Of a stretch of 64,000 nt of DNA, positions 3-18,155 are shown one piece after another; within the stretch, counting starts at the first letter, position 1, and every line of letters begins with the position of its first letter. The stretch is from NCBI GenBank assembly GCA_963740085.1, contig CAVUCU010000004.1:256001-320000 (forward strand), written 5' to 3'. The position numbers were made by a program, and so were the translations under genes. A model generated the notes under the pieces. The model ran no database searches and had not been told where the DNA came from. It was given only the letters and a program-made list of their open reading frames with translations. This DNA is from Nitrospirota bacterium (GTDB lineage: Bacteria; Nitrospirota; UBA9217).

Positions 3-809
3 ATGATGTTTGCAGCAATTACGTTTCTGTTCGCAGCCTGCGGCCGTGATCATGGGGACAACGGAACGCCGGTCGATCTGACTAAAGCCTCAACAGTAAC
101 CGTTACCTCGGACAAGAGGATCGCCCTGGCGAACGGCAGTGAAAATATAACCCTGACCGCGCTGGTGACCAACGCGAGCGGCAGTGCGCTGTCTGGAACA
201 GCGATATCATTTGGGATCACGGCGGGAACAGGCACGTTACAAAACGCGGCTGCTACGACGGACGCATTGGGTAACGCTACGGTGCAAGTGAACAGGGGTC
301 CCATTGCCGCCCCGCTGACAAAAGAGGATGTGGTCATCACTGCTACGGCCGATGGCGTTTCGGGTTCTAAAACGGTCAGGTTCATCAATCTGCCCGCCTC
401 TGCAGCGATTGAAGTCGCGCTCACTAAAACGGTCTCGGACCTGGCGTGGTTGACATTCGACATCATCAGCGCTCCAACGCAAACGCCGCCAATATTCTTG
501 CAATTGGCTGCCATAGGCTCCGCGAATACTCCGCCGTATGTTAATGGGGTAAATACCTTGACGTGGCAGGCTGACCCTACCGCTCCCACGTATGCGATCA
601 TTACCTCTCTGATCCCGGGTTTCACTGCAACCGCTAATAGTGCTATCGTGGGAATTACGTATAACATCGATTCGACCATAAAAGAGCTGCCGGTCTTTTC
701 AGTGGGGCCGAATCATATCACCGCCAATAATTCGGGCGGATTTCCCATACTCCCGACACTGAACCAGGTAGATATTTCTGCAACGACGGTCTTTGACACA
801 GAATTATAG
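3..809 (+). CDS. Lipoprotein with bacterial Ig-like (Big-1) domain and C-terminal beta-sandwich (possibly cohesin-like); start may lie at or just beyond the window edge
   Basis: Lipobox LFAA-C; Big-1-like ALANG..ITLTALVTNASG..TTDALGNATV; paralog of 14552-15382 (both end TTVFDT). Confidence 0.7.
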   Translation: MMFAAITFLFAACGRDHGDNGTPVDLTKASTVTVTSDKRIALANGSENITLTALVTNASGSALSGTAISFGITAGTGTLQNAAATTDALGNATVQVNRGPIAAPLTKEDVVITATADGVSGSKTVRFINLPASAAIEVALTKTVSDLAWLTFDIISAPTQTPPIFLQLAAIGSANTPPYVNGVNTLTWQADPTAPTYAIITSLIPGFTATANSAIVGITYNIDSTIKELPVFSVGPNHITANNSGGFPILPTLNQVDISATTVFDTEL

Positions 810-911
810 TTACTCCCGGGTCGCGTACGCCGTCGCATGATCGGTCGACGGTGTGCGCTTCTCAGGGTTTTATTGCCATGTATTTTTTGTCCGGCTATTG
901 GAGGTAGTATC

Positions 912-2195
912 TTGAAAATTAAGTCACTGTTCTTCGTTGTTTGCTTCTCGTTGTTTTTATCGTGCTGGCTGTCTCCGGAGGCTGTCGCGTCGCCCAGCGT
1001 GACCATTGCCCCCGCGTCCGACAGTGTTTATGCGGTTATGGGGAACGATTTTTCAGACGCCTCGGGCATGGATATCACCATTCGCTACGATCCCTCTGCG
1101 CTGGCCGCTCCCCAGGTCGTGCAAGGAGGTCTTATCGGCGGGGCCCTCATGGCTATCAATGCCTCAACACCGGGAATGATCCGCCTGGCGCTCGTCCGTG
1201 TTACGGCGATCAAAGGGTCTGGAGCGATCGCAACGATAACCTTTACCCGTTTGAAGAGCACCGGTGCGGACATCCTGTCCCTCGTTTCCTCGGCAATAAA
1301 CACTGCGGGCCAAAGCATCCCGGTAACGTCACAGGTGGTGAATTCCGTGAAGACAGCGGACAGCGGCGCATCAACAACGGACCAAAAAACCGGGCAATCG
1401 ACAGCAGGGACCTCTCCGTCGTCGGAGTCCGGAACTCCCGGTACAACGGCAACAGCGCCGACGGGAATAGCAGGGATAGTGGTTCCCTTGCCGGGCGCAC
1501 CCGCCTCCGAGGTCCAGAGCGCAAGTTCTTCAACGGGTCAGCCCGCTCCTGATGAACAGCAGCCCGCCACTGATGAGATCGTTTCCCCTGAAGCAGCCAA
1601 AGAATCACCAGGTGAAAAGGCCGGCAAACCGGAGCTCAAGAAAGTCAAGATGTTTCCCAGTGTTCTGGAAAAATTCAGGGATTTTAAGGGCGCGAAGACA
1701 CCTGAGGCACTTATGGCTTTGTTCGATGTGCGGGATAACAATCCGCAACAAGACCCGCCTATCGTCCTTTCGAACGGCAAGGCTACGGTTAAAATCGTCC
1801 TTGAACTCGATTCCCAGGGAAAGAATAACAATTTTCTGCTTGATGGCGCAAGCCTGGTTTCTCTGAAAAAAAAGGAGAAGCATTTCTGGACCGTGGAACT
1901 TTTGCCGGATTCGAGGACCTATGAAGCGACAGTCAGCGTGCCCCGGAACGATCAGTGGTCCGTTATCCCCTTGACCGTTGCCCCGCCCATGGATGTCAAC
2001 ATAGACCCATCCTCCAGCAGACTGACCGAAGCGGATTTTAAAATGTATCTCAAGGAAAAGGGGACCGCCAAGACCCCCCGTTTTGACCTGAACAAAGACG
2101 GACGGCGCGATTACATTGATGATTATATTTTTACGGCCAATTATATCGTTCAACGTGACAGTCATTCGAAGAAGGAGATGAAGGTCCGAAAGTAA
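912..2195 (+). CDS. Secreted cohesin-domain protein with Ser/Thr/Pro linker and C-terminal EF-hand/dockerin-like Ca loop
   Basis: GGAGG then TTG at 912; signal peptide; cohesin-like SGMDITIRYDPSAL..GMIRLAL..GSGAIATITF; DLNKDGRRDYIDD loop. Confidence 0.75.
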   Translation: MKIKSLFFVVCFSLFLSCWLSPEAVASPSVTIAPASDSVYAVMGNDFSDASGMDITIRYDPSALAAPQVVQGGLIGGALMAINASTPGMIRLALVRVTAIKGSGAIATITFTRLKSTGADILSLVSSAINTAGQSIPVTSQVVNSVKTADSGASTTDQKTGQSTAGTSPSSESGTPGTTATAPTGIAGIVVPLPGAPASEVQSASSSTGQPAPDEQQPATDEIVSPEAAKESPGEKAGKPELKKVKMFPSVLEKFRDFKGAKTPEALMALFDVRDNNPQQDPPIVLSNGKATVKIVLELDSQGKNNNFLLDGASLVSLKKKEKHFWTVELLPDSRTYEATVSVPRNDQWSVIPLTVAPPMDVNIDPSSSRLTEADFKMYLKEKGTAKTPRFDLNKDGRRDYIDDYIFTANYIVQRDSHSKKEMKVRK

Positions 2196-2523
2196 CATTT
2201 GTCCCGCGTGCCGAAAACCGTAACGAGGGGGTGGGACATCATGGGAATTGAACTACTCTGGAGCCTGTTATGCTCACCCTGTCGAATTTCGGCAGGGTCA
2301 CGAGTGGTTCCCATAATCTTTTGCAGAGAAGGGGTCTGTTGAGGTCATATTTTATCATGGAGTTGCTTCCGATCTGCTTTGTTGCCCCTCATGCTATTTC
2401 CATAGATTGCGATCTGATATTTCTTCCAAAATTCACGGGCAGCATCACGGTATTATTTATAAAGAAGATCATCGATCAGGACGCAATTCCTGGTCCAGGT
2501 CTTCTTGCCTGTCGGGGTGGCTC

Positions 2524-3111
2524 ATGATAATAAAAACGGTCCGGATCTTTGTCTGCATGGTCGCGATACTGTTCATGCCATTGACCGGGGCCCTGAATCG
2601 TGCGCTGGCTGATGAACAGGGTTATCAGCGAAGCGTAGAGCAATACACAGTACCCGATGTCGTTCTCGTGAACCAGAACGGAGCGAAGGTCCGTCTTAAG
2701 GACCTTCTGCAAACCGACACGCCGGTGGTCCTGGATTTCATATTCGGGACCTGTACGACCATCTGTCCCATCCTTTCGGCCGGGTACGTCAACTTGCAGC
2801 ATAAGCTCGGCCCGGATTCCCGGGCGATCCGGCTCGTTTCGATCTCCATCGATCCGGAACATGATACACCGAAGGTCATGAACGCGTATCTGAAACGGTT
2901 TCGTGCGAAGCCGGGATGGGATTTTCTGACCGGCTCCCGTGAAGATATCGACAAGGTGATGACGGCGTTCGGCGCTTACATTCAGAACAAGATGTCGCAT
3001 TACCCGTTGACGCTGATCCGCTCCCCTGAGGACGGCTCATGGATCAGGCTCTTCGGCCTCATGAGCACCGCGGAATTTATGAACGAGGTCCAGAAGGTAA
3101 AGAAGAAATGA
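2524..3111 (+). CDS. SCO1/SenC family copper chaperone
   Basis: FIFGTCTTICP (CxxxC), SISIDPEHDTP, conserved His in MSHYP; signal peptide. Confidence 0.9.
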   Translation: MIIKTVRIFVCMVAILFMPLTGALNRALADEQGYQRSVEQYTVPDVVLVNQNGAKVRLKDLLQTDTPVVLDFIFGTCTTICPILSAGYVNLQHKLGPDSRAIRLVSISIDPEHDTPKVMNAYLKRFRAKPGWDFLTGSREDIDKVMTAFGAYIQNKMSHYPLTLIRSPEDGSWIRLFGLMSTAEFMNEVQKVKKK

Positions 3112-4815
3112 TCGGTGAACGGGGGAAAAAGAAGCATCGCGGTGAGCAGATCGTCCTGCACGCAGGGGTCCTTTGCCTGACACTTCTTTTCTGTGCAGCC
3201 TTCGCTCTTGCAGCCGAAAAACCAGGTGCTGATGCCGCCCATTCGCAGCGCGAGATCCTTCAACTGGGGGAGCGGATGTATCGCGAGGGGCTTCTGCCCT
3301 CCGGAGAGCCGATGCAGGCATTTGTAAAAGGAGACCTCCCCGTTTCGGGGACGACCTTTACCTGTGTAACCTGTCATCAGCGCAGCGGGCTTGGATCGAC
3401 CGAAGGGGGTGTTGATACGCCTGCCACGAACGGCCCCGAACTCTTGAAGCCATTTCAGATGCGCTATGCACGTTACGGTATGAACAAATCAACCTATTTC
3501 CAAATACCCATCGAGCGGCCGGCATATACCGATGAAACACTGGCAGAAGCGATCCGGGGCGGCGTCGATTCCCGGGGGCGGGTCCTCGATTATGTCATGC
3601 CTCGTTACCTGCTTGATGATGAGGACATGGCGATCATGATCTTCTACCTGAAGTCACTTTCAACGCATATTTCACCCGGCATTTCAGACACGACCTTCAA
3701 GTTTGCGACCGTCATGACGGATGACGTCAGCCAGGAAGACCGCGATGCGGAGCTCGCCCCTTTGGTAAATTTTATCAATATCAGGAACAATCATTCAGCA
3801 TTTTTAAAAAAACTATCCAACAGCGGAAAACTGCGTATGGCTGGAAATTTGATGCCTCCCCCCACACAGGCGATATCGTTATCGATATGGTTGTTGAAAG
3901 GTCCACCGGAAACGTGGCGCAGCCAGTTGGAGGAGTACAATCGCAAGGAGCCGGTATTCGCCCTGATCGGCGGAATAACAAAAGGGGAATGGAAGCCGAT
4001 CCACCAGTTCAGTGAGGACAACCACATCCCGTGTCTTTTTCCCAACACCGATTTTCCGGTGATTTCACGGACCGACTGGTACACCTATGTACCTGTCAAA
4101 AGGGTACTACCAGGAGGGCGAGGCTGCTGCCCACTATCTCAACAACAAGGGGGAGCTCTTGAAGGGCGGGCCGATCGTCCAGATCGTTCGCGATTCGCGC
4201 GAGGGGCGGGCGCTCTCAATGGGATTTCAGGAGACCTGGCGGAATCTCGGGCATGAAGCGTTGGTGACGCTCATCCTGAAACCGGGGGAAAAACTGACCG
4301 AGGACGTTATACAGAAATTGCTGGCAAAGAAGAAGGCCAGAGCTGTCGTCCTCTGGGATGGCTCCGCGGCGCCGTCGGAGCTGGAAACGCTGGCAACGGT
4401 CAAGAACAGGCCGGAGATGGTTTTCGTTTCTTCAAGCTATCTCGGCAAGGATCTGTGGTCGCTGAAAGAACAGGTCCGCGATTTCACTTACGTAACGTAT
4501 CCTTTCAGGTTGCAGGACAAGCTTGATCAATGGGACTCCTCGCTGGTCCTTTCAGCCAACATAACGAAAGAAGCGAATGCAGCATATTCCATTCAAGAGA
4601 TATTGACCCAGGCACTCATAGATATGAAAGGTAATTATTACCGCGACAATTTTCTGGATGTTATCGGGATGATGGATGATCTGGAGGTCCCCTTGTATGA
4701 ACGCCTCAGTTTCGGCCCGGGACAGCGCTACGCCTCGAAGGGGTGTTACATCGTTCAGCTCTCAAAGGGAGAAAAACCCGAACTCGTCAGGAAAAGTGAC
4801 TGGGTAATTCATTGA
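3108..4815 (+). CDS. Cytochrome c fused to periplasmic-binding-protein-like domain (apparent +1 frameshift at ~4087)
   Basis: CVTCH heme motif; ATGA overlap with SCO; ACACCTATGTACC here versus ACACCTTGTACC in the paralog joins ORFs 3039-4256 and 4087-4815. Confidence 0.8.
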
Positions 4816-4828
4816 AAGGAGGTCAGGA

Positions 4829-5407
4829 GTGATGCGGAGCAAATTCCTGGGCATGGTGCCGGTTCTGGTCTTTTTTACGATGATGCTTATCGGGAGACCG
4901 GCTGTCGCCGCGGGGGAATCCTACGAGCGGACCCTGGAAAGTTATACTGTGCCGGATGTTGTGCTGGTTAATCAGGATGGGGTCAAGGTTCACCTGAGGG
5001 AACTCCTGCAGTCGAAGGATCCGGTCATTCTGGATTTCATCTTCGGCACCTGCACGACCATCTGCCCGATATTGTCGTCAAGTTTCGCCAACCTGCAGAA
5101 TAAGCTGGGCGCCGCTTCCCGGAAAGTTCATCTGGTATCCATAACCATTGATCCGGAGCACGACTCACCAAGGGTCATGAAGGAGTACCTGAAGCGATAT
5201 CGCGCAAAACCCGGATGGGATTTTTTGACCGGATCGCGCTCGGATATTGACAAGGTGATGGCTGCATTCAACGCCTCTATTCCCAGCAAGATGTCCCATT
5301 ATCCGCTGACACTGATCCATTCTCCGGGAGACGGCAAATGGATCAGGATCTTCGGGCTGATGGGGAGCGCTGAATTCATGAGCGAGTGCCGGAAGGTGGG
5401 GATATGA
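4829..5407 (+). CDS. SCO1/SenC family copper chaperone (copy 2)
   Basis: FIFGTCTTICP, ITIDPEHDSP; AGGAGG RBS. Confidence 0.9.
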   Translation: MMRSKFLGMVPVLVFFTMMLIGRPAVAAGESYERTLESYTVPDVVLVNQDGVKVHLRELLQSKDPVILDFIFGTCTTICPILSSSFANLQNKLGAASRKVHLVSITIDPEHDSPRVMKEYLKRYRAKPGWDFLTGSRSDIDKVMAAFNASIPSKMSHYPLTLIHSPGDGKWIRIFGLMGSAEFMSECRKVGI

Positions 5408-7086
5408 TGAAAGGTCCGAACAGTAACCGGCTGGGCAATTGTATTATACTGTTCGCAGTTCTCTGCGTGGCGGCCCTTCAGCTTTTCGTAGTGCTGCCAA
5501 ACTCGTTCGGCGAACCGCTTAAGCCTTCTCTTTCGCCGGAAGAGAAGCTTCGGTTGGGAGAACGGATGTATCGAGAAGGTGTCCTGCCATCGGGTGAACC
5601 GATGCAGGCATTCGTAAAAGGAGACGTCCCTGTTCCTGGGACTGCTTTTACCTGTGTAAGTTGTCATCTGCGGAGCGGGCTCGGATCTTTTGAAGGGGGC
5701 GTTTACACGCCTGCCACGAACGGGGCTAAACTCTTCAATCCGCTCCAACTGACCTATGTACGATTCGACCGGCCGGCGTACACCGATAAAACACTGGCTG
5801 ACGCGATCCGGGGTGGCGTCGATCCCCGGGGACGGGTCCTCGATTATGTCATGCCTCGTTACCTGCTGGATGATGAGGACATGGCGATCATGATATTCTA
5901 CCTGAAGTCGCTCTCGTCACAATTTTCACCCGGGATCTCGGAGACGAACCTTCATTTGGCAACGGTCATGACCGATGATGTGAGCCAGAAAGATCGTGAT
6001 GCGATGTTTGTGTCTTTGCTGGGTATCATTGGTTCCAGGAACCAATATGCAAGGTTGAAAAGCCGGCAGAGCGTCCTCGGCAAAGGGCAATTAGTCCTGA
6101 TGTCGGATGACATGATGAACTCATTTGACCAAATTATATCGCTCTCGCCCTGGCTCCTGAAAGGTCCACCGGAGACGTGGCGCAGCCAGTTGGAGGAGTA
6201 CAATCGCAAGGAGCCGGTATTCGCCCTGATCGGCGGAATAACAAAAGGGGAATGGAAACCGATCCACCAGTTCAGTGAGGACAACCACATCCCGTGTCTT
6301 TTTCCCAACACCGATTTTCCGGTAATTTCACGGACCGACTGGTACACCTTGTACCTTTCAAAAGGGTACTACCAGGAGGGCGAGGCTGCTGCCCACTATC
6401 TCAACAACAAGGGGGAGCTCTTGAAGGGCGGGCCGATCGTCCAGATCGTTCGCGATTCGCGCGAGGGGCGGGCGCTCTCAATGGGATTTCAGGAGACCTG
6501 GCGGGATCTCGGGCATGAAGCGTTGGTGACGCTCATCCTGAAGCCGGGGGAAAAACTGACCAAGGATGTCAAACAGCTGCTGGCAAAGGACAAGCCTGGA
6601 GCTGTCGTCCTCTGGGATGGCTCCGCGGCGCCGTCGGAGCTGGAAACGCTGGCAACGGTCAAGAACAGGCCGGAGATGGTTTTCGTTTCTTCGAGCTATC
6701 TCGGCAAGGATCTGTGGTCGCTGAAAGAACAGGTCCGCGACTTCACTTACATAACGTATCCTTTCAGATTGCCGCCGTCGCCCACGGAGATGATAAATCC
6801 CTCTGACCCGTGGTACTATTTAAAAGGAAATACAACGAAAGAAGCTAATCAGGCGTATATCATCTCTCAAGTATTCAACATGGCGATCATGGATATGAGA
6901 AGGAATTATTACCGCGACAATTTTCTCGACGTTATCGGGATGATACCGGATACGGAGGTCCCCTTGTATGAACACATCAGTTTCGGTCCTGGACAGCGCT
7001 ACGTCTCGAAGGGATGTTATATCGTTCAGCTCTCAAAGGGAGAAAAACCCGTACTCATCAGAAAAAGTGACTGGGTAATTCAGTAG
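5404..7086 (+). CDS. Cytochrome c / periplasmic-binding-protein-like fusion (copy 2)
   Basis: CVSCH; shared C-terminal SFGPGQRY.SKGCYIVQL; overlaps SCO stop. Confidence 0.85.
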   Translation: MMKGPNSNRLGNCIILFAVLCVAALQLFVVLPNSFGEPLKPSLSPEEKLRLGERMYREGVLPSGEPMQAFVKGDVPVPGTAFTCVSCHLRSGLGSFEGGVYTPATNGAKLFNPLQLTYVRFDRPAYTDKTLADAIRGGVDPRGRVLDYVMPRYLLDDEDMAIMIFYLKSLSSQFSPGISETNLHLATVMTDDVSQKDRDAMFVSLLGIIGSRNQYARLKSRQSVLGKGQLVLMSDDMMNSFDQIISLSPWLLKGPPETWRSQLEEYNRKEPVFALIGGITKGEWKPIHQFSEDNHIPCLFPNTDFPVISRTDWYTLYLSKGYYQEGEAAAHYLNNKGELLKGGPIVQIVRDSREGRALSMGFQETWRDLGHEALVTLILKPGEKLTKDVKQLLAKDKPGAVVLWDGSAAPSELETLATVKNRPEMVFVSSSYLGKDLWSLKEQVRDFTYITYPFRLPPSPTEMINPSDPWYYLKGNTTKEANQAYIISQVFNMAIMDMRRNYYRDNFLDVIGMIPDTEVPLYEHISFGPGQRYVSKGCYIVQLSKGEKPVLIRKSDWVIQ

Positions 7087-7136
7087 TAAAGAAACTGCCC
7101 ACCGCTCGTCCGGACAAACAATTTTGGAGAGAAAGA

Positions 7137-7867
7137 TGAACAGGGTTGTCTTAATGGTAATGATCTTTTTAGCAATCGCATCTGCGGCGCAGGCTAAAAA
7201 CCAGTTTTACGGTGATCAAGAGCTTAGTATGCTGAGTGAAGGGTACAAGCTGTTCATTAGCGACAACATTATTAATACCGTTGATAAAATAGAGCGCGGC
7301 GCAGACGCTCGCACCGCTTACTGTACCGGCGCTGATGAAAAAACTGCAAAGCATATCGGCGATATAAGCGTGGTGCGCTCGGATAACCGTTTGCGGATCA
7401 GTGGGAATACAAAGATATCCTACTCTGCTGCTTGCAACACGTATTACTCTGTTGTTGAACGTTTAAAGACTGCTGATGATATCAGGAGGCTCTGGTTGTT
7501 ATTTGCCGATTCTGGAACGGACGGTTATGCGGCAGAAACCATTAAAAAACACGGTGTAAATGAAGACCCCAGTGCTTTAATTGAGTTGAGGCGGTTGGAA
7601 GTTGTTTCCAAGTATATCGAATTTTTTACAAACAATAAAGACTGGAAACTTACGGAGTATACCTTTCTGTCGCAAGCCTTTAAGGCACGGAAAGATAAAC
7701 CGTTATCTCCTGTCTTTGCACAATTCATCTCGGCGTTGTTAACAGGTGATGCGGAGAAGGCGTTCCGAGTCCTAAAATCGATTGATCTTGATGATCTTGG
7801 CAGCCGTTTTATTCCACCGGTTTCAAGTGACGGCCTGAAGCCCAGCGGGGCAGACCCGCACGAGTAG
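7137..7867 (+). CDS. Secreted hypothetical protein
   Basis: GGAGA RBS, signal peptide ending AQA; AT-richer than neighbours. Confidence 0.6.
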
Positions 7868-7931
7868 CATGCCGGGAGTGCAACCTATAGTTCACCTCTC
7901 CGACAACCCGCATCTCCTCATGAAAGGATAT

Positions 7932-8336
7932 ATGTCGATTTTTCGCAGCTCTGTCAGATTTCTTATATTGTCGGTGGTTGTTTCGGCCCTTGCCCTGAGC
8001 CTTGCTTCAGGAGCTGGGGTGGCACAGGTCGCGTCACAATACGACGCGACGCTCAAGCAAATGCTTGATGCGGTCCAGGAGAAATCATACGAGCCGTTCG
8101 TGGCCAGAGGAGACCTGAGATTCAAAAACGGTTTTACCACGACGATGTTCGATGAACTGTCCCGGCAGCTCGCGCCGAGGCTTCGGCAGGGTTATTCCAT
8201 GACATTCCTTACCACCCTGCGCCAGCGGGACTACCTGGTCTATGTCTGGAAACTTGCGTTTAAGGACGGCAAGGATGACTTTCTTGTCAACATGGCTATT
8301 AAAGACGGAAAAATCACCGGCTTTATTACCCGGTGA
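7932..8336 (+). CDS. Secreted hypothetical protein
   Basis: AAAGGA RBS before ATG; signal peptide; alpha/beta mature part. Confidence 0.6.
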   Translation: MSIFRSSVRFLILSVVVSALALSLASGAGVAQVASQYDATLKQMLDAVQEKSYEPFVARGDLRFKNGFTTTMFDELSRQLAPRLRQGYSMTFLTTLRQRDYLVYVWKLAFKDGKDDFLVNMAIKDGKITGFITR

Positions 8337-8572
8337 TGGTGATTAAGTACCGGTCCCATCCGATATTCGTCCGCTCCGCTGGATGTCTGGAACTTCAAAA
8401 GGTCGGAATTTGAAGGTATCCTGACGCTCAGTTCATCTAAAAAATGAGATGCATTGGGTTTAAATGCATACCTGGTTAAAAAAGACCATTCAAAATGGAC
8501 CTGTTCCCTTTCCTCATCTCTTTCCTTCCGTATAACGCATTGTAATCATAAATGTCTTGAATAGGCTTTAGT

Positions 8573-8589
8573 TGGGCATTACTCTTGCA
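8573..8589 (+). promoter_or_regulatory. Putative sigma-54 (-24/-12) promoter
   Basis: TGGGCATTACTCTTGCA has GG-N10-GC spacing, about 95 bp upstream of the ATG at 8684. Confidence 0.55.
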
Positions 8590-8683
8590 AACAATAAGCC
8601 GGATAAAAGAAGATTAAAGGTCCGCCGATGCCAATAACCTTCAACCAAGTCTCAGGTGTGACGGCTTGAGAAAGGAAATTCCT

Positions 8684-9301
8684 ATGAAACTGAGATTGAT
8701 GATCGTCCTGGGCATTGTACTCCTGGCCTGTCAGGCTGTCGCCGGAGAGAAGATTGCTCTTAAGACGCAAAAGGATATTGAGAACTACAATGCCGGGATA
8801 AGGATCGCAAGGTCCTTAAGGCAGCAGGGGGGCGAGATCAACCTGGATATCGTGATCCAGGGAATGAAGGACGAGTTAACAGGCGAAGGGCACATTTTGA
8901 CGGAAGACAATGTCTCGGAAACCCTGGTCGCGTCGCATAACGAAATGAAGCAGGTGTGCCGGGTTATCGAAGATTCGGAACTCTACGAGGCAATATGTAA
9001 CAGAACTGATCCGCAGGCACCAGCATCATCTCAAGCCCAGGTGCAGAAGCAGAGATCTGATGAGGAACAAACTTTTGCCGCCCTGTTTGCCTCTACTCCA
9101 GCAGCTCCCCGGAGAATTGCTTCGCAAACGGGCGTATTATCTCAGGCGCTTATGCAGAGACAGGCGCCTGTTCAGTACCAAACCTTTGCAGACCTGCAAG
9201 CTGCACAGGCGCAAGTGAACGATGAGCCGGTTAAGATCGAGAGGAGCGACCTTGCCAGAAGATTTGGCGAGGCGTGGGTCAAAACGCAACCGCATCAGTG
9301 A
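8684..9301 (+). CDS. Secreted protein with FKBP N-terminal (Mip/FkpA dimerisation) domain; no PPIase domain evident
   Basis: Signal peptide; LKTQKDIENYNAGIRIARSL..INLDIVIQGMKD resembles FKBP_N; Gln/Ala-rich tail. Confidence 0.65.
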   Translation: MKLRLMIVLGIVLLACQAVAGEKIALKTQKDIENYNAGIRIARSLRQQGGEINLDIVIQGMKDELTGEGHILTEDNVSETLVASHNEMKQVCRVIEDSELYEAICNRTDPQAPASSQAQVQKQRSDEEQTFAALFASTPAAPRRIASQTGVLSQALMQRQAPVQYQTFADLQAAQAQVNDEPVKIERSDLARRFGEAWVKTQPHQ

Positions 9302-9365
9302 AACACCGAAAATATATTATAAATCAGAAAAAAGAGACGAAAGATGATACCGGCAGACTAAAATG

Positions 9366-9500
9366 TTGAGAATCTCCTAAAAAGTCGAATTTAACCGCAG
9401 AGCCGCAGAGTGGCGCCGAGGAAACCTCTTAATCTTTAAGATCTATTTCTCCGCGTCTCAGAGTCTCGGCGGTAGATTTTTCTTTTTACGACTTCATCAA
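9366..9500. repeat. REP/MITE-like palindromic element
   Basis: Inner arms ACCGCAGAGCCGCAGAG / CTCAGAGTCTCGGCGGT; outer arms TAAAAAGTC / CTTTTTACGACTTCATCAA. Confidence 0.6.
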
Positions 9501-9605
9501 ATATTTGACGATAAACAGACGGAACATTCGAAGAAGAGTGACGCGCATGCACATGACCGCGGGTTTGGCAGCGCAGGCAAACAGATATGAAAGGAGAAGT
9601 AAAAT

Positions 9606-9927
9606 ATGAGCGGACTCAAATTTAAGTTGAGAAACAGCTGTAAGCCTTTATTGTTGCTGCCATTCATATTGGCAGTAGCCGCCCTTTTTTTGGGGAGGGA
9701 TCAATGTAACGAGCGCGGGAGCGGATCAATCGGGGAGACATCCGAAAAATGCCGCTGAATATCACGCGATCCGGGACCCCAAAGTTGACCCGAATTTATC
9801 CCCGGCTCAACGGGCGCGCGTGCAACGGGACGCTGCGATCAAGAATAGAGAAAATACCAGGAAGTTCATTCAGAATATTATGGCAGGGAAAGAATCGGCA
9901 TCTTCCCAGGGAGGGAGTGCAAAATGA
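9606..9927 (+). CDS. Small secreted protein translationally coupled to the multicopper oxidase (one apparent frameshift in the T7G4 run at ~9690); not in ORF track
   Basis: AAAGGAG RBS; MSGLKFKLRNSCKPLLLLPFILAVAALF then, after removing 1 nt, ..LSPAQRARVQRDAAIKNRENTRKFIQNIM..GGSAK*; TGA overlaps the MCO ATG. Confidence 0.55.
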
Positions 9928-12900
9928 ATAAGCGAAATTTGTCTTTATGCGCAATAGTGATCTTTGCGATAGCCCTGCTGGGCGCACCCGCGGCCATGGC
10001 CGCCTGCAATTACACGGCGGCGGAGGCAGCACTGTATCCGCCGGGAATAGGATTCAATCCAGCCGTCTGTTACAATGTGCCGAACTTCTCGCAAAGCCCG
10101 AACATCAGGAAGTTCGTTGACAGTCTCCCTGGTCTGGGGGCAGCCAACGCGAACAATCTCGGGCAGTATATCCCGATTGCCGTTCCGGACACGACATCGT
10201 ATCCGGGGTCGGATTATTATGAGATCGGTCTCAAACAGTACACGAAGAAGATGAACACCGACCTCCCGGCCACCACGCTCAGGGGCTATTACCAGAAAGA
10301 CGGCACTGATCATTCCTCGCAGTATCTGGGCGTGGCTATCATCGCCAAGCGCAACCGTCCGGTGCGCGTCAAGTATTTTAACGAGCTCCCCATCAGCTCT
10401 CTTACCGATACAACTGCCGGCAGGCTTTTCCTGCCTGTGGACACCACCTTGATGGGTGCAGGCATTGGGCCAGATGGAGTACATTCTTTCTCGCAAAACC
10501 GTGCAAGCTGGCATCTCCACGGTGGCCGCACCCCGTGGATCAGCGACGGCACGCCGCACCAGTGGCTTACCCCGGCTGGTGATCCGTCAATACCCCCGAA
10601 AGGCGCGAGTTTCCAGAACGTGCCTGACATGGTTAACGGCTCCGGAACCACGTGCATCGGAGGCGCCAAGTGCTTCACCCCTAATGCGGGCGACGGCATC
10701 GGGACGCTCTACTATTCAAACGATCAGAGCGCCCGCCTGATGTTCTACCACGACCATGCCCTTGGAATAACTCGACTGAACGTCTATGCCGGTCTTGCCG
10801 CGCCCTATCTCCTGACCAGCCAGGTCGAGGAAGACCTGATCTCGGGGACGGATGTTTCGGGCGGCAACCCGGCGGCAAAACAGATATTGCCCGACCAGGG
10901 AACTCCAAATGGCGTCTATAGATATGGAATCCCTCTGGTTATCCAGGACAAATCATTCGTGAATGACGCAACCACGCCTCCGGCCCCGGGCTTCCCGGCA
11001 ACGACTTCCGGCTACGTACCTATGCCGACCACCCTTAGTACTGATCCTCTCTGGGCAAAGTATGTTGGGACCGGCGGAGGGAACCTCTGGATGCCCCACG
11101 AGTATATGCCGATCGAGAACATCTTTGATCCGACCGGTAACACACCCAACGGCAGATGGGACTATGCTCCTTTCCTGAATCCGCCTTTGATCCCCACGCA
11201 TCCCATGCTCCCCACTCCGACCACTGTACCGGAATCATTCGGAGACACCGTGACGGTCAACGGCACTGTTTTCCCCTACCTCGAGCTGCCGCCGGATGCC
11301 ATCCGTTTCCGGATACTGAGCGTCGGCAACGACCGCGGGTTCAACCTGATGTGGTTCAAGGCTGATCCCCTGCGGATAAACGTGACGAACGGAGGGTCCA
11401 ATTATACGAATCCAACGGTGTTTATGAGCGGAAATGTAGGCCTCTATTCGACTGCAACCGCAATTGTCTCTCCCGGCACCATATCAGCGATCGATGTTGC
11501 AGGCTCGGCGCATTACATCTTTCCTCCTACGGTTAAGCTCTCGGGCGGAGGAGGAACCTGTGCTTCAGTAATAGCATCAGTTGTCTCCAATTCGAGCGGT
11601 GTAATTACCGTATCGGCCCAGGGGTGCAGCGGTTTCACGTCTGCGCCAAATGTTACGTATCACTGGCGGTGGAGGAGGCACCTATACATCCGCAACAGCG
11701 TCGATAATTCCCAAAGGCGTCATTACGGGAATCGTGGTTACGGGCGCAACGGGCTACCGGTCGGATATGCCTGCTCCGACGGTGACCATTTCGGATTCAA
11801 CCGGCACGGGCGCCACAGCCGTCGCCTTCGTCAACACGGAAGTAAAGATGGTTGATGCACTCCCGAACAATGGGTGGCTGAATGGGCCGTGGGATGGGCG
11901 CGACGGCGGCGTCCCTGATCCGGCCATGTCAGGCCCGTCATGGGTCCAGATCGGCAACGAGTCCGGGTTCCTGGCCCAGGCCGCGGTATGGCCGCCCCAA
12001 CCGATCGTTTACGAACAACTTCGCCAGAGCATTCCCACGCTTGGCGTCACGTACCACTCGCTCCTTCTGCAGCCGGCAATGCGCGCGGACGTGATCGTTG
12101 ACTTCAGCAGTTACAAGGACGGCGACGTGCTCATCCTGTACAACGATGGGCCCGCGCCCATGCCGGGGTACTGGCCGCTCAACGACTACTACACGGACGA
12201 CCCGGACCAGACCGGAATAGGCGCAGCTCCGACGACACCGCCCGGCTTCGGCCCCAACACCCGCACCATCATGCAGGTCCGGATCAAGGGGACCAAGACG
12301 TCGGCCTATACATTCAACCTTGCAGAGCTCCAGGCAGCAGTTGCCGAAGGCCTTCGCAGCGGACCAGGACAAACCCATTGTTCCCCAGTTGGCCTATAAC
12401 GACGCTTACCCGGGATTTGCAACGTTTGACGCATACGCAAGTAATAAAGACACAACCCTGAACCTTACCGGTTCGCCTCAGGGGGTATCAAGGATCCTTA
12501 CCGCAGTAGGCGGCAACGGCTATACGACGCCTCCCACGGTCCAGGTTCTGGCCACGGGCGCTGGCTCGGGTGCAACGGGCACGGCAGGTCTCAATCCTTA
12601 CGGCGGTGCCATTCTCCTCACGGCAGGTGCCGGCTACACCTCGCCTCCTGCGGTTACGATAGGGACTCCGCTCAGTACCTACACCACCCCAACGTTTAAC
12701 CCTCGTCCCGGTGTGATTCAGGTAACCGCCTTGGGCTCTACAACGATCTCGGGCGGTATGGTTACCGCCATCGCGATCGATGAGCCCGGCTCGAACTACA
12801 ACACCAACGTTTTGGACACCGCGGCAACCCCCACATGCATCATTGCGCCACCAACGTGCACGCCGCTCGGTACGGCAATTTGCGATACGGCCACCTGCCA

Positions 12901-14457
12901 GTCGTTCATCTCAGTGGCGGGTTCCGTCGGCTCCATTCAGGTTACCACCGCCGGCTCGGGCTACACGTCTGAACCTACGGTCTTCCTGAATGGCGGAGGA
13001 GGTACGGGCGCCACGGCAGATGCCTTGCTGGCCGGGGCGACGATAATGACCGGCAAGAACATAACAGAGGGTTTTGACCCCGACTACGGGCGGTTGGACA
13101 TCAGGCTCGGCTCCACGCCGAACCCGCTCACGCCCAGCATAGGCAACGGCCAGGTTATCGGCATCGCGCGCTACATCGACCCGCCGACCGAGTTCCTGAA
13201 CGATGGAGAGGTCATCCTGTGGCGTTTCGCGCATCTGGGAGTTGACTCCCATGCCCTGCATTTCCACCTGTTCGACATGCAGGTGGTGAACCATGTTGAC
13301 TATACCAACGTCGTAAAGCCGCCGTACCCGGACGAACTCGGTTGGAGGGAAACCATCAGGACCAACCCGATGGAAGACATCATCGTGGCGATAAGACCGA
13401 GGACGATGGCGCTCCCGTTCCCGGTACCGAACAGCAGCCGGCTTCTGGACGTGACGAACGCCGCTGGATGTCAACACGAACTTCCTTCCCATACCGCCTC
13501 CGCCCGGCATAGCAGCGGTACCGCAGATCATCAATGCGGTGACTGACTTCGGTTGGGAATACGTCTGGCATTGCCACCTCCTGGCGCATGAAGAGAATGA
13601 CATGATGCGGCCGATGTGCTTGTTGCCTCCGTCTGCCGTACCGAATGCGCCTGGTCTCGCGGCCGGAGGTGTAGTCGCGTCGCCGGAGCAAGTCAGCTCT
13701 CACTTGGACGCATTACTGCTCGACACCTGCCAATGCGCCGGCCGCATTTCGTCATCCAACGGTGCACGGGCAATGGTTGCACTCCTGCGACGACCATAGC
13801 AACATTGATTGACAGAAACTTGCGCACCTATATCGACACTACGGTTGCTGCAGGCACGACGTATGGATATCGTATCCATGCGTTCAACAACTCGGGCAGT
13901 TCGGCGATTCGACCACCCGATCCGTAACAACAGCTGACCTATAGCATTCCCACCGTATCCATAACAGCACCGGCAAGCGGGGCAACGTATACCGCTCCAG
14001 CTACGGTCGCGTTGGCCGCTTCCGCGACGTCCGGAGGAACCGGAGACCATCACCAAGGTGGAGTTCTTCAATGGTTCGAATCTGATACAAAGCGTCACAA
14101 CAGCACCCTATAACGCGAGCTGGGCGAGTGTGCCTGCCGGTGTATATGGAGCCGTGACCGCCAAGGTCACCAACAGCCAGGGAGCAACTGCTGTCTCTAC
14201 TCCGATATCGGTCATTGTAGCGCCGATCATAACGACCTGCGGTCGTAGCCCCCACGGGCGACGTCAGCGGCAACGGCTTAATTGACCTGACCGATGTCTT
14301 GCTTGTCCTGCGTGCAGCATTGGGTTTACCGGACACCACCGTTCCTTTGACCACGATCATAGCCAAGGGCGATGTATATCCTCCAGGCGCGCCGGATGGC
14401 GTGATCACCATGGCAGATGCGCTGACGGTTCTGCAAATGTATGTGTCCACACATTAA
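9924..14457 (+). CDS. Large secreted multicopper oxidase (CotA / Geobacter OmpB-like) with inserted GxGY repeats, FN3, Ig-like and C-terminal dockerin domains; about 7 apparent frameshifts
   Basis: All four Cu motifs present: WHLHGG, FYHDH, HALHFH, WHCHLLAHEENDMM; consecutive ORF pieces join by small indels; ends ..ADALTVLQMYVSTH* at TAA 14455-14457. Confidence 0.85.
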
Positions 14458-14483
14458 GGGAGTGCAACACGACAATTAATATC

Positions 14484-14525
14484 TATCAGCATGGCACAGT
14501 GAAAAGATCACGTGCCATGCTGATA
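14484..14525 (+). other. Strong intergenic stem-loop (RNA stabiliser or terminator)
   Basis: TATCAGCATGGCAC-N14-GTGCCATGCTGATA, perfect 14-bp stem, no U-tract. Confidence 0.6.
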
Positions 14526-14551
14526 ACATAACGCGGTTTAAATATGGAGGA

Positions 14552-15382
14552 ATGAAAATGAATACAAGATCAGGTGGTTATATCATATTAGCTGCGGTCA
14601 TCTTTCTTCTGTTCTCTGGCTGCGGCGGTAGCAGCGGGGGTGGGGGGGGTGCTGCAGCCTCAACAACTACCCTGACATCGGACAAGGCGATCGCGCTGGC
14701 GAACGGCAATGATCCCGTCAGCCCGGAACGAGTTACCTTTACCGCAACATCCACGCCGGGGAGTCCGGTATCATTTGTGATCACCGCGGGAACGGGTTCA
14801 CTCGTCAATGCTGATACGGCGACGAATGCCTCCGGTATTGCGACGGTGCAGCTCCAAAGAAACCCAATTACCGGTGTGAACACGAGAGAAGATATAACGG
14901 TCACAGCCACTGCCGCCGGCGCTTCGGCTGCCAAGACTGTCAGATTCATCGACCTGCCGTCTCAGGCCAATATATCGATCGCGCTCAACCGGGTGATAAC
15001 GGACCTGGGCGCCCTGACATTCGACCTTGTAAGTTCGCCGACTCAGTCGGCGCCGCAGTTCATGCTGGCGACACCTTTAGGCGTTGCAATCACGTTTCCG
15101 CGCATAGGTCCTCTTGGCCCTGGCACACAAAATACCTACACCATTGCGGTGGGCACCGGGAAATATTCGCTCGTCACAACAGTGAACCCGGGTATCACCA
15201 CGACAGTGAATGGTCCTCTCGTGGGATTGACCTATAGCATTGATCCGACCATCAAGTCGCTTCCGACCTTTGCCGTAGGAACGACACCGCAGGCAACAAA
15301 TTCTTTAGCCTCAGGCGCACTTCCTATCGCGGTGTCACAAGCAGATTTCGTTGCGACGACGGTTTTCGACACGGATAATTAA
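14552..15382 (+). CDS. Lipoprotein with Big-1 domain and putative cohesin-like C-terminal domain (paralog of 3-809)
   Basis: GGAGG RBS; lipobox LFSG-C plus Gly/Ser linker; TSDKAIALANG, KTVRFIDLP, DLGALTFDL. Confidence 0.75.
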   Translation: MKMNTRSGGYIILAAVIFLLFSGCGGSSGGGGGAAASTTTLTSDKAIALANGNDPVSPERVTFTATSTPGSPVSFVITAGTGSLVNADTATNASGIATVQLQRNPITGVNTREDITVTATAAGASAAKTVRFIDLPSQANISIALNRVITDLGALTFDLVSSPTQSAPQFMLATPLGVAITFPRIGPLGPGTQNTYTIAVGTGKYSLVTTVNPGITTTVNGPLVGLTYSIDPTIKSLPTFAVGTTPQATNSLASGALPIAVSQADFVATTVFDTDN

Positions 15383-15388
15383 CGAGGG

Positions 15389-15505
15389 GTTGCCGTGGCC
15401 CCGTCAATGGATGTCGACATCAACCTCTTTGCCGGCAGGTTGATGGATGCGGATTTCGAGATTTATTTGAAAAACCGGGGACCGTCGAGGTCCCCGGTTT
15501 TTTTC
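15389..15505 (+). pseudogene. Remnant of the 3' part of the cohesin-domain gene
   Basis: Reads VAVAPSMDVDINLFAGRLMDADFEIYLKNRGT versus LTVAPPMDVNIDPSSSRLTEADFKMYLKEKGT in 912-2195. Confidence 0.7.
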
Positions 15506-15837
15506 GGCGGGATTTATCCCGAAAAACAATTGGTCCCGGGTAAACAATGCCGCCTGATGTAATTCACCTGGGGTAGCGCTTCGTGCATGGACTGCATCTC
15601 GAAACACACCGTACGGACAAAAACCGCTGAACAATCCCGCAGCAGACCTCCCTTGCCCCGCTGGAAGCAATGAATATCCATATTGTGAGAAGTCTTCGTT
15701 TTGTGATATAGTGCCCCTAAGGGATAGTTTCCACAAGTCCTTAACATTCTCAATATAATTCAGACTTGAAACGTTCAGAACATCGCTTGCATTACAATGG
15801 GGAATTATTTCTGCAGTTCAGCGGTCGAGGTATTATC

Positions 15838-16425
15838 ATGAGATCAATCATAGCGCGGGTACTTGTCTGCTTGGTCGCTCTATTCTTGTTGCCATTGACC
15901 GGGACCCTGGATCGTGCGCTGGCTGAAGAACAGGGTTATCAGCGAAGCGTAGAGCAATACACGGTGCCCGATGTCGTTCTCGTGAACCAGAACGGAGCGA
16001 AGGTCCGTCTTAAGGACCTTCTGCAAACCGACACGCCGGTGGTCCTGGATTTCATATTCGGGACCTGCACGACCATCTGTCCGATCCTCTCGGCCGGGTA
16101 CGTCAACCTGCAGCATAAGCTCGGCCCGGATTCCCGGGCGATCCGGCTCGTTTCGATCTCCATCGATCCGGAACATGATACCCCGAAGGTCATGAACGCA
16201 TATCTGAAACGGTTTCGTGCGAAGCCGGGATGGGATTTTCTGACCGGCTCCCGTGAAGATATCGACAAGGTGATGACGGCGTTCGGCGCTTACATTCAGA
16301 ACAAGATGTCGCATTACCCGCTGACGCTGATCCGCTCCCCCCAGGACGGCTCATGGATCAGGCTCTTCGGCCTCATGAGCACCGCGGAATTTATGAACGA
16401 GGTCCAGAAGGTAAAGAATAAATGA
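15838..16425 (+). CDS. SCO1/SenC family copper chaperone (copy 3; near-identical to 2524-3111)
   Basis: FIFGTCTTICP; mature region almost identical in DNA to copy 1. Confidence 0.9.
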   Translation: MRSIIARVLVCLVALFLLPLTGTLDRALAEEQGYQRSVEQYTVPDVVLVNQNGAKVRLKDLLQTDTPVVLDFIFGTCTTICPILSAGYVNLQHKLGPDSRAIRLVSISIDPEHDTPKVMNAYLKRFRAKPGWDFLTGSREDIDKVMTAFGAYIQNKMSHYPLTLIRSPQDGSWIRLFGLMSTAEFMNEVQKVKNK

Positions 16426-18155
16426 TCGCAGAACGGGAAACGAAAAGACGGGGTCATTGGAATAGTATGATGCGAGGATACATCCTCGCCCTCATGCTTC
16501 TTTTCTGTTGTGTCGCAACCGCTCCCGCAGAAGAAAATCAAGGAACCGATACCGCCCTTTCGCAGCGCGAGATCCTTCAACGGGGAGAGAACATCTACCG
16601 CGAGGGCATCCTGCCCTCGGGAGAGCCGCTTCAGGCCGTCGTGAAGGGCGACATCCCGGTGGTCGGGACGGCTTTTAGCTGTGTGAGCTGTCATCTTCGC
16701 AGCGGTCTCGGATCACTGGAAGGGGGCGTCATTACGCCCCCGACCACGGGGAAGAAGCTGTACCAGCCGCTTTACACCGGTACTGAACTTACCCACTCCG
16801 CGCGAAAACAAGTGCCGACCTATTTTCGGTCAATAGCCCATCGACCGGCGTATACGGACGAAACACTTGCTGTCGCCCTGCGGATGGGTATCGATCCCGA
16901 AGGCCAGGAATTGAATTCCGTCATGCCACGCTATTTTCTTGATGATCGGGACATGGGAATCCTTATATCCTACCTGAAGTCACTTTCCTCGGAGCTTTCT
17001 CCCGGGGTTACGGATACGACCCTTCACTTTGCCACCATCGTTACGGAAGGGGTCGGCGCCGAAGATCGGGAGGCAATGCTGGCGCCTCTGCAGACCTATG
17101 TCGCCGCCCGGAACAGCATGTCAAAAGTTTATGAGACGCGGGCAAAATACGGCGTGTTTGCCGAAGAAATGGACCTTTCCTACAAGAGAATGTCGCTGTC
17201 TGTCTGGGAACTCAAGGGTTCTGCTGAAACGTGGAGAGGACAATTGGAGGAATACTATCGCAAGGAGCCGGTCTTTGCGCTGCTCGGCGGGATAGCCGCG
17301 GGAGAATGGAAACCGATCCATGAATTCAGCGAGGACCATCGCATTCCCTGCATCTTCCCCGTTACCGATTTCCCCGTCATCTCCGAGACCGGCTGGTACA
17401 CGCTCTATTTTTCCAAGGGCATTTATCAGGAGGGTGAGGCCGTGGCCCATCACCTCGCGAGAATGGAGGGGCTTTCGGCGGAGAACACGGTGTTGCAGAT
17501 CGTCCAGAACTCACGCGAGGGCCGGGCCCTTCAAGCGGGATTCGAATCCACCTGGCAGGACCTGGGTCGTCGTCAGCCGATCACCATAGCCCTTCCGGAA
17601 GGCGATGCAATCACAAAGGAGGCCCTTCAGCGGCTCATGGAAAAGAACAAACCGTCCATAATCCTTCTGTGGGCAGGTGCCGGGGTCTTTCCGGCCTTGC
17701 AGGCGATTACGAAGCCGGCGAAGAGGCCGCAGCGTGTATATATGTCATCGAGTCTCCTGAAACAGGGCCTCTGGACCGTGCCGGAAAAGGCGCGTGATGT
17801 TGTGTACATGGCCTATCCCTACAGGCTCCCGCAGGAAGAGGCGATATACTCGAAGTATGCAAGCGGTTTACTGCGGGGCAAGAAGAACATGCCGATCAAC
17901 GACCGGAGAATTTCAACGCGGATGTATTCCGTAGCGAGGCTGATGACCGAAACGTTTCTGCATATACAGAGAAATTACTATCGTGACTATTTCCTCGATG
18001 TCATCGGTATGTTGAGAGACCAGCTATATCCCGATTATGTGCGCCTGAGCTTCGGACCGGGGCAGCGCTACGCCTCGAAGGGGTGTTATATCGTTCAGTT
18101 GACTCGAGGTATCAAACCCGAACTCGTCAGAAGAAGCGAATGGGTGATCTATTGA
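16422..18155 (+). CDS. Cytochrome c / periplasmic-binding-protein-like fusion (copy 3)
   Basis: CVSCH; SFGPGQRYASKGCYIVQL; ATGA overlap with SCO. Confidence 0.85.
   Translation: MIAERETKRRGHWNSMMRGYILALMLLFCCVATAPAEENQGTDTALSQREILQRGENIYREGILPSGEPLQAVVKGDIPVVGTAFSCVSCHLRSGLGSLEGGVITPPTTGKKLYQPLYTGTELTHSARKQVPTYFRSIAHRPAYTDETLAVALRMGIDPEGQELNSVMPRYFLDDRDMGILISYLKSLSSELSPGVTDTTLHFATIVTEGVGAEDREAMLAPLQTYVAARNSMSKVYETRAKYGVFAEEMDLSYKRMSLSVWELKGSAETWRGQLEEYYRKEPVFALLGGIAAGEWKPIHEFSEDHRIPCIFPVTDFPVISETGWYTLYFSKGIYQEGEAVAHHLARMEGLSAENTVLQIVQNSREGRALQAGFESTWQDLGRRQPITIALPEGDAITKEALQRLMEKNKPSIILLWAGAGVFPALQAITKPAKRPQRVYMSSSLLKQGLWTVPEKARDVVYMAYPYRLPQEEAIYSKYASGLLRGKKNMPINDRRISTRMYSVARLMTETFLHIQRNYYRDYFLDVIGMLRDQLYPDYVRLSFGPGQRYASKGCYIVQLTRGIKPELVRRSEWVIY

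Follow-up and report, generated by a model that had tools for sequence, protein, structure and literature searches.

The first 18,155 nucleotides (nt) of a 64,000-nt window on contig CAVUCU010000004.1 of the Nitrospirota assembly GCA_963740085.1 (C4:256001-320000; positions are those of this window unless another contig is named) encode, all on the plus strand, a large multicopper oxidase (MCO) that ends in a dockerin, two paralogous immunoglobulin (Ig)-domain lipoproteins that we call BigA and BigB, a secreted cohesin protein, Coh, and three pairs of genes for a copper chaperone and a cytochrome c fusion protein (Table 1). The region is the right half of an island of about 36 kb of exported copper proteins, and the host is probably an uncultured soil anaerobe of the Nitrospirota. 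An initial annotation had described an MCO with a terminal dockerin followed by an Ig lipoprotein, and a paralogous lipoprotein followed by a cohesin protein, and had interpreted them as a cellulosome-like display. Both arrangements are present, with dockerin-tagged copper enzymes adjoining cohesin-bearing envelope proteins, except that the oxidase is not one open reading frame (ORF) in this assembly and that its dockerin falls just short of the Pfam cut-off. The interpretation is thus partly supported: it is right in its principle, a plug-and-socket tether of copper enzymes, and wrong or unproven in parts. What is new is that BigA and BigB are predicted to bear a C-terminal cohesin-fold domain missed by Pfam.

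Table 1. Features at the left end of the window, with positions, strand and supporting evidence
Feature	Position	Strand	Evidence
BigA lipoprotein, Big_1 Ig domain and predicted C-terminal cohesin-fold domain	3..809	+	profile match, lipobox
Coh, secreted protein with true cohesin	837..2195	+	PF00963, AF2 and fold search
SCO1/SenC copper chaperone, copy 1	2407..3111	+	Pfam, CTTIC
MofC-like monohaem cytochrome c and periplasmic-binding-domain fusion, copy 1, +1 shift at 4087	3108..4815	+	
SCO1/SenC, copy 2	4829..5407	+	Pfam, CTTIC
MofC-like cytochrome c and binding-domain fusion, copy 2, intact	5404..7086	+	
Two exported proteins (247 and 155 aa), no family	7124..8336	+	no Pfam/NCBIfam match
FKBP_N-only protein, MofB-like position	8666..9301	+	FKBP_N 29.1 bits
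OmpB/MofA-like large multicopper oxidase body, signal peptide, four Cu motifs, Big_7	9924..14232	+	9 single-base frameshifts
Oxidase C-terminal dockerin	14233..14457	+	PF00404 22.4 bits; local dockerin HMM 104 bits
BigB lipoprotein, Big_1 and predicted C-terminal cohesin-fold domain (residues 134-276), proposed private anchor of the oxidase	14552..15382	+	
38-aa remnant of a second Coh gene (C-terminal domain)	15389..15502	+	47% identity, E 8e-10 (small search)
SCO1/SenC, copy 3	15766..16425	+	Pfam, CTTIC
MofC-like cytochrome c and binding-domain fusion, copy 3	16422..18155	+	

BigA, which begins 27 nt outside the left edge of the window, has the lipobox LFAAC and a Big_1 match of 49 bits; BigB has the lipobox LFSGC and is 46% identical to BigA. 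The roughly 140 residues that follow Big_1 in the two proteins matched no Pfam family, and BigA matched a hidden Markov model (HMM) of the BigB-type domain with 188 bits. A model of BigB was calculated with AlphaFold2 (AF2) from an alignment of 25 sequences, with a mean predicted local distance difference test (pLDDT) value of 82.5. Foldseek, run with this two-domain model, returned mostly tandem-Ig proteins and one cohesin dyad at rank 20 with a poor TM score; because it was uninformative on the second domain, we used a wide search with VIA, which is independent of Foldseek, over 48,161 PDB chains. Among the 50 matches listed, 12 cover residues 134-276, and every one of these is a cohesin. 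The top match among them, 5nrk_A (Z 9.1, root-mean-square deviation [rmsd] 3.2, 119 of 143 residues aligned), is followed by 5aoz (Z 8.9), 5n5p (8.7), 6kgc (8.5), 3ul4 and 4ums (8.1 each), 3kcp and 2xdh (8.0 each), 5lxv and 1ohz (7.9 each), and 2vn5 and 4dh2 (7.8 each). The remaining 38 cover the Big_1 domain and include intimin D00-D0 (Z 12.8, 36% identity).

By fold, then, the C-terminal domain of BigB resembles a cohesin with moderate strength, and similarity at the level of sequence or profile was found for neither lipoprotein; for these two reasons we call it a "cohesin-fold domain" rather than a proven member of the family. Matches in the ESM Atlas, which we treat as leads, point the same way: PF00963 is carried by 2 of the top 3 clusters for the BigB domain (score 0.88). 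For a third lipoprotein of the genome, a 178-residue protein described below, 10 of 30 Atlas matches fall in a cohesin-named set (score 0.92, PF00963 on 58% of members), again as a lead, and hhalign found nothing between this protein and either cohesin profile (probability ≤0.3%).

The initial annotation had proposed modeling the oxidase dockerin in complex with the cohesin candidates, and this was done for BigB. Residues 134-276 (25-row alignment) were combined with the dockerin (7-row alignment) and two calcium ions, giving complex scores of 0.70, 0.76, and 0.60, with a median of 0.70, compared to 0.39 for the best of three controls. Among solved complexes, 116 of 157 reach the pass mark, as do 2 of 215 mismatched pairs. 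The runs agreed in at least 96% of contacts, with partner pLDDT values of at least 82, and the model places the two helices of the dockerin (residues 19-32 and 59-74) against a single sheet of BigB (residues 153-156, 192-210, and 247-256). This model is evidence in favor of binding and not proof of it. The cohesin-fold domain of BigB appears to be the likeliest socket for the oxidase dockerin, in a comparison that covers BigB alone among the candidate sockets.

The oxidase itself keeps all four copper motifs, HLH, HDH, HALHFH, and HCHLLAHEENDMM, when these are read in the frames of the broken gene, and so it has the four His-rich motifs, including HCH, that characterize multicopper oxidases. 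Pfam Cu-oxidase_2 matched it twice, with 19.6 and 19.0 bits, slightly below the cut-off of 20.4. Its nearest named relatives are proteins of metagenome-assembled genomes (MAGs) of Geobacteraceae and Desulfuromonadaceae, at 61-67% identity, and an orthologue in L010 is a single intact ORF of 1619 residues with 66% identity by tblastn. Two segments can be seen in the oxidase dockerin when it is aligned with six other dockerins, among them that of a 413-residue protein (29.8 bits); its second loop is atypical (GDVYPPGAPDG). The genome has a paralogue on C1 (L009:6528-11146, minus strand, or about 646.5-651.1 kb of C1), an intact gene of 1337 residues with a dockerin at its end. An FKBP_N gene lies ahead of it, and directly after it comes the gene for the 178-residue lipoprotein (lipobox LVAC), which matched no family.

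Nine single-base frameshifts break the window oxidase. They were located from stop-to-stop frames and tblastn of the C1 paralogue and the L010 orthologue, followed by reading of the junctions. Eight are +1 shifts (at about 11658, 12335, 13470, 13693, 13745, 13940, 14040, and 14238) and one is a -1 shift (about 13895); an apparent in-frame stop at 13925 is due to two of them. We think it probable that these shifts are mostly assembly errors. Counting those in this region and immediately to its left, there are 12 breaks, of which 11 are +1 (eight of the nine in the oxidase, one each in MofC-like copy 1, the upstream MCO, and an XDH-like gene), a bias that natural decay is unlikely to produce. 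Single-base shifts also split E1-beta and putA in the window (about 24250 and 27515) and glmS and uvrD 50 kb upstream on the same contig (L267:13313-15209 and 15341-17285), and the XDH-like gene and the upstream MCO are split at about 1050 and 14065 of L008, the stretch left of the window; therefore, the assembly carries indel errors in housekeeping genes. Other soil metagenomes lack the extra base at two sites: at 4087 it is missing from the sole covering contigs of runs X3 and X4, and at 14235 or 14239 one base is missing in all of the covering depth of X2 (7.76 + 12.8 of 20.6) and X4 (2.9 of 2.9). These public-run contigs are short and mostly 88-95% alike, and they inform on these two sites; no public run contains more than 0.19 of the sampled words of the oxidase. 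Finally, all of the copper motifs are intact.

That the large oxidase is a real pseudogene in this strain, leaving no working oxidase display at the locus, we consider unlikely. The nine shifts do fall inside 4.5 kb, much more densely than breaks occur elsewhere; in the same window, ORFs of 3090, 1245, and 1093 residues are intact. The gene rpoB is intact as well, and the shifts lie outside homopolymers. Decay would not readily account for the +1 bias, for the splitting of glmS, uvrD, putA, and E1-beta, or for the bases missing at 4087 (X3 and X4) and 14235-14239 (X2 and X4), and it would have had to spare every copper ligand motif and to introduce no nonsense codon beyond those to which the shifts give rise. 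The idea that each +1 shift merges two synonymous alleles fits the eight oxidase sites as placed; we dropped it as proof, since the placement within each junction was partly chosen. For annotation the case is a warning: a key gene looks dead here, probably through insertions in the consensus.

Gene order around the lipoproteins was examined by searching with the lipoprotein alignment and identifying neighbors by tblastn, which yielded one true genome locus, in a Nitrospirota MAG (L096), and nine metagenome contigs. L096 supports the assignment of the host to the Nitrospirota, and the best of the rpoB matches listed, a Thermodesulfovibrionia MAG at 71%, is suggestive of its affiliation. Within the genome studied here, a dockerin cargo is directly followed by a lipoprotein three times: Peptidase_S8 subtilase and BigA, oxidase and BigB, and the C1 oxidase and its 178-residue lipoprotein. 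On eight of the nine metagenome contigs a dockerin lies directly upstream of the lipoprotein (seven of the S8 type and one of the oxidase type), the ninth contig beginning inside the gene; Coh lies directly downstream on eight of nine, the ninth stopping 16 nt past the gene. The single oxidase-type contig, L098, pairs a dockerin 88% identical to that of the oxidase with a BigB orthologue (77%). In L096, too, cargo, lipoprotein, and Coh come in this order, and this locus shares with two of the contigs (L103 and L106) the full series to the left, that is, a beta-helix protein with dockerin, two MCOs, an MCO-like protein with dockerin, a small protein, and the S8 subtilase with dockerin. An SCO and fusion pair follows Coh in two of the six loci that reach more than 1 kb past it (L102 and L106).

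The core order of cargo, lipoprotein, and Coh is therefore conserved as a unit, and the large oxidase is outside that unit, being missing from eight of the nine metagenome contigs and from the Nitrospirota MAG. The expectation that the whole cassette would be conserved thus held for the cargo-lipoprotein-Coh order, on nine contigs and in L096, and failed for the oxidase. Among 80 oxidase-family loci in other genomes, an SCO gene is found at 3, a fusion gene at 3, and an FKBP_N gene at 5.

Coh has 452 residues and is a cohesin by profile, with 28.1 bits for PF00963 compared to a cut-off of 24.1. Beyond its cohesin (about residues 50-176), a linker of low complexity leads to a conserved C-terminal domain; the protein also has a dockerin-like calcium loop, DLNKDGRRDYIDDY. 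The AF2 model of residues 50-176 (pLDDT 79.7) has the nine-stranded jelly-roll of cohesins: its best 20 VIA matches are all cohesins, with Z scores of 10.8-16.4, the highest to 2xdh (rmsd 3.0, 123 residues aligned). A sequence search of Coh against PDB chains gave no relevant match. The family is large, with 1069 representatives at E ≤ 0.001 and 314 at ≤ 1e-30, and its named genomes are nearly all Geobacterales, with some Nitrospirota; Cohesin was matched in 57 of 66 members and Dockerin_1 in 8 of 66. Among 80 Coh-family loci, SCO is present at 9, a MofC-like gene at 11, the large oxidase at 9, and a BigB-type domain at 4.

In four of eight named genomes or MAGs scanned, a gene for a ctpA-like S41 protease or a YibQ-like deacetylase adjoins the Coh homologue, and L117 has both; such neighbors indicate that the general role of Coh is broader than this island. 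Four of these loci, L117, L121, L122, and L137, are drawn from Geobacter, Geomobilimonas, Geotalea, and Geomonas. M23 peptidase and ctpA-like S41 protease genes lie upstream of the Coh-family paralogue in L117, L122, and L137, a YibQ-like polysaccharide deacetylase gene follows it in L117 and L121, and in L122 a 515-residue Big_1 protein is encoded between the S41 gene and the paralogue.

Cohesin HMMs and Pfam together give four candidate sockets in the genome, BigA, BigB, Coh, and a secretin protein, each with one cohesin or cohesin-fold domain. The secretin protein has 804 residues and is encoded at C4:201529-203943 (L267:7529-9943), some 52 kb to the left of the window, with genes for PilO and a pseudopilin on either side of it. 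Its TPR, STN, GspD-N0, Secretin_N, and Secretin domains are accompanied by a cohesin at the C terminus, which scores 26.2 bits compared to a cut-off of 24.1. The local dockerin HMM found six dockerin ORFs: the window oxidase, its C1 paralogue, the 413-residue cupredoxin protein, a 1712-residue beta-helix protein, the S8 subtilase, and a 1098-residue protein (C4:468423-471716; L268) with Ig-like repeats and a W-ending dockerin, which follows two DUF4082/Big_2 proteins and has no lipoprotein ORF of at least 100 residues just downstream. Pfam matches of the six cargos include no glycoside-hydrolase domain. The comparison with cellulosomes therefore holds for the plug-and-socket principle and not for the parts, as there is neither a multi-cohesin scaffoldin nor a set of dockerin-bearing carbohydrate-active enzymes.

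From the domains, folds, gene order, and conservation described above, we infer the binding, location, and enzymatic role of these proteins as follows. The oxidase and subtilase dockerins are rather probably held by the cohesin-fold domain of the lipoprotein encoded downstream, which would tether the enzymes to the envelope. After export, the oxidase dockerin would bind the C-terminal domain of BigB in a calcium-dependent manner, and the subtilase dockerin would likewise bind that of BigA. The lipid of the lipoprotein would sit in a membrane, with both the periplasmic and the surface side possible, and the Big_1 Ig domain would act as a spacer that keeps the socket off the membrane, so that each cargo would have one "private anchor." More speculatively, Coh, with a true cohesin and half a dockerin, and the PilQ-type secretin would take the other dockerin class. 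The SCO and fusion pairs and the FKBP_N protein presumably serve copper loading of the oxidases or electron transfer for them and would stand outside the tether.

A number of observations weigh against this proposal. The oxidase is broken in this assembly, and its dockerin matches PF00404 slightly below the cut-off of 22.9 bits. The fold match of BigB is middling, since models without a true match typically peak at Z scores of 7-8 in VIA; Pfam finds no cohesin in BigA or BigB, and hhalign gives no link between the BigB-domain profile and the Coh cohesin profile (probability 1.7%). The lipoproteins belong to a rare family, seen in 25 of 5.8 billion clusters, and outside this genome the oxidase-BigB pair occurs on one contig of 1.3 kb only (L098). 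A dockerin is found at 2 of the 80 oxidase-family loci in other genomes and a cohesin of either type at none. The docking pass may stem from likeness to cohesin-dockerin complexes already solved, which the model may have memorized; custom alignments and calcium ions fall outside its calibration; and since BigB was the one socket docked, the score does not rank it against Coh or the secretin cohesin.

Another possibility, which we regard as quite unlikely, is that Coh is the scaffold for the oxidase and subtilase dockerins and that the Big_1 lipoproteins serve for adhesion or spacing instead of as sockets. Coh is an unambiguous cohesin (Z 16.4), directly follows the lipoprotein on eight of nine contigs and in L096, and belongs to the large family described above. 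It has no membrane anchor beyond its signal peptide, however, and therefore could not by itself display cargo on the cell. In addition, the Coh copy beside the oxidase-BigB pair has been cut to a 38-residue remnant with BigB retained, most Geobacterales Coh-family loci lack a dockerin match to the narrow HMM (8 of 80 have one), several sit between ctpA-like and deacetylase genes, and BigB itself has the predicted cohesin fold and passes in the docking model. It is very unlikely that the dockerin-like tails are calcium-binding modules for stabilization or secretion that bind no cohesin, with lipoproteins that are unrelated and serve, for example, adhesion through their intimin-like Big_1 domain: non-cellulosomal dockerins with no assigned function are indeed common (as reported in parts of PMC5244752 and PMC9012536) and Big_1 does resemble intimin, but cargo precedes lipoprotein three times in the genome and on other contigs, every structural match to the second domain of the lipoprotein is a cohesin, and the complex model outscores its controls.

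All of the parts can be joined into a modular envelope "redox-some" of a double-membraned bacterium, a reading that we offer tentatively and hold to be possible but doubtful. Six dockerin cargos in two classes (H-ending, as in the oxidase and the subtilase, and W/Y-ending) would be sorted onto four kinds of sockets. These would comprise lipoproteins that each anchor a cargo of their own through a cohesin undetected by sequence profiles, a secreted adaptor with a cohesin and half a dockerin, and the secretin of the PilQ type, which could use its C-terminal cohesin to catch cargo at the exit pore.

Three pairs of an SCO protein and a monohaem cytochrome/periplasmic-binding protein had been recognized in the initial annotation, and all three bear closer inspection well. 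The SCO1/SenC matches are 71-77 bits, each with CTTIC; every fusion protein has exactly one CxxCH and a Peripla_BP_6 match of 29.8-30.3 bits, under the cut-off of 31.7; and each SCO gene overlaps its fusion gene by ATGA. Their assignment as dedicated partners of a display system does not stand, since they are the known "MofC-like + Sco" helper set of ompB/mofA clusters. In the part of He et al. 2017 drawn on here (PMC5566968), these clusters are described as carrying a MofC-like cytochrome c and periplasmic binding protein beside SCO1/SenC, an arrangement found here three times over beside the oxidase; metal oxidizers are also described there with an FKBP-type MofB, and the functions of the accessory genes are said never to have been tested. 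In the FKBP_N protein of the window, Pfam detects no catalytic FKBP_C/PPIase domain.

The helper pairs are mosaics. SCO copies 1 and 3 share 95-99% DNA identity over about 500 nt (2586-3086 and 15900-16400), and fusion copies 1 and 2 share 98-99% over parts of their length (3965-4465 and 6228-6724), which indicates recent gene conversion between the cassettes. Fusion copy 3 is 81-85% identical to the fusion protein after Coh on contigs L102 and L106 and, judged by sequence, appears to be the ancestral copy. The oxidase-BigB unit probably arose by duplication of a cassette of cargo, lipoprotein, Coh, SCO, and MofC-like genes, with later loss of the Coh copy and gene conversion between the cassettes, as the Coh remnant and the near-identity of the SCO and fusion genes indicate.

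The ompB/mofA clusters of Geobacter sulfurreducens (OmpB GSU1394, the MofC-like GSU1397, and the SCO1/SenC protein GSU1398) and Leptothrix discophora (mofABC), as far as they are covered in PMC5566968, share with this locus a large secreted oxidase with Ig/FN3-type C-terminal domains and, as neighbors, a cytochrome c and periplasmic-binding protein, SCO1/SenC, and an FKBP-related protein; the likeness to GSU1394 and MofA was judged by the layout and description of the clusters. The locus differs in that the helper pair is threefold with recent gene conversion, the FKBP-like protein has the N domain only, and the oxidase has a dockerin at its C terminus, with the gene of a lipoprotein of predicted cohesin fold coming next. 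The papers drawn on here leave unexplained how OmpB-type oxidases are retained on the cell. If a similar tether served Geobacter OmpB-type proteins, it would explain how loosely bound oxidases are retained at the surface, and the long-open question of how such oxidases stay on cells becomes directly testable.

Single-cohesin scaffoldins offer the closest parallel to the proposed anchors. OlpA and OlpC of Clostridium thermocellum (3ul4 and 4dh2) and the non-cellulosomal cohesin of Archaeoglobus fulgidus (2xdh) share with them the principle of a single cohesin, borne by a protein anchored in the envelope, that takes up a single dockerin enzyme; the Z scores to 3ul4, 4dh2, and 2xdh are 8.1, 7.8, and 8.0 for BigB and 14.4, 14.7, and 16.4 for Coh. 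The proposed anchor here is an N-terminal lipid with an Ig spacer in a probable diderm, rather than SLH or sortase; its cargo consists of copper redox enzymes and a protease and not of glycoside hydrolases; its socket domain in BigA and BigB is unrecognizable by sequence; and its gene is adjacent, and would be private, to that of the cargo.

Non-cellulosomal cohesins and dockerins are widespread and of undetermined function according to parts of PMC5244752, PMC9012536, and PMC10553843. Anaerobic methanotrophic (ANME) archaea and syntrophic sulfate reducers, likewise non-cellulolytic anaerobes with extracellular electron transfer, have many cohesin and dockerin proteins, some beside S8 proteases and Ig-domain adhesins (PMC9012536 and PMC10553843, in part). 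Those papers propose adhesion or partner recognition; the parts drawn on contain no pairing of a copper oxidase with a lipoprotein socket and no binding tests. Among the titles and abstracts listed in literature searches, we found no lipoprotein cohesin anchor for a copper oxidase, and the supplementary tables of PMC10553843 and PMC9012536, which list cohesin and dockerin proteins, may contain similar pairs. A lipid-anchored cohesin tether that is cryptic in sequence is a specific hypothesis open to pull-down tests. If correct, it would also mean that profile searches undercount cohesins and that cohesin-dockerin tethering beyond cellulose degradation may exceed what annotation suggests.

Left of the window, L008 encodes a dihaem cytochrome c peroxidase, the 1712-residue beta-helix-dockerin protein, two MCOs, the 413-residue cupredoxin/MCO-like protein with its dockerin, a small exported protein, and the S8 subtilase. 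A second MCO-dockerin gene had been expected immediately left of the window. The adjacent gene, directly ahead of BigA, is instead that of the subtilase, whose C-terminal dockerin is 58% identical to that of the oxidase, and the MCO-like dockerin protein lies two genes further. The split upstream MCO has 352 residues here and 489 in L096. In its second frame (L008:14064-14492), the C-terminal copper motif is WHSH rather than HCH, and so the type-1 copper Cys is seemingly replaced by Ser.

In NCBIfam, Coh, the MofC-like proteins, and the lipoproteins are all unnamed, and promoter and terminator scans gave matches at chance level (16 compared to 14.1 and 23 compared to 20.4, respectively). An Rfam scan of positions 1-22000 found no riboswitch ahead of the oxidase; a fluoride riboswitch lies at 21038-21104 on the plus strand (64.2 bits, gathering score 34), 5' of small ORFs. 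Farther to the right, a long one-strand block (32246-57093, plus strand) encodes a 3090-residue DUF11/SdrD_B surface protein, an OmpA-domain protein, a 1245-residue protein that belongs to no family, three TPR proteins, ExbB, and two ExbD proteins.

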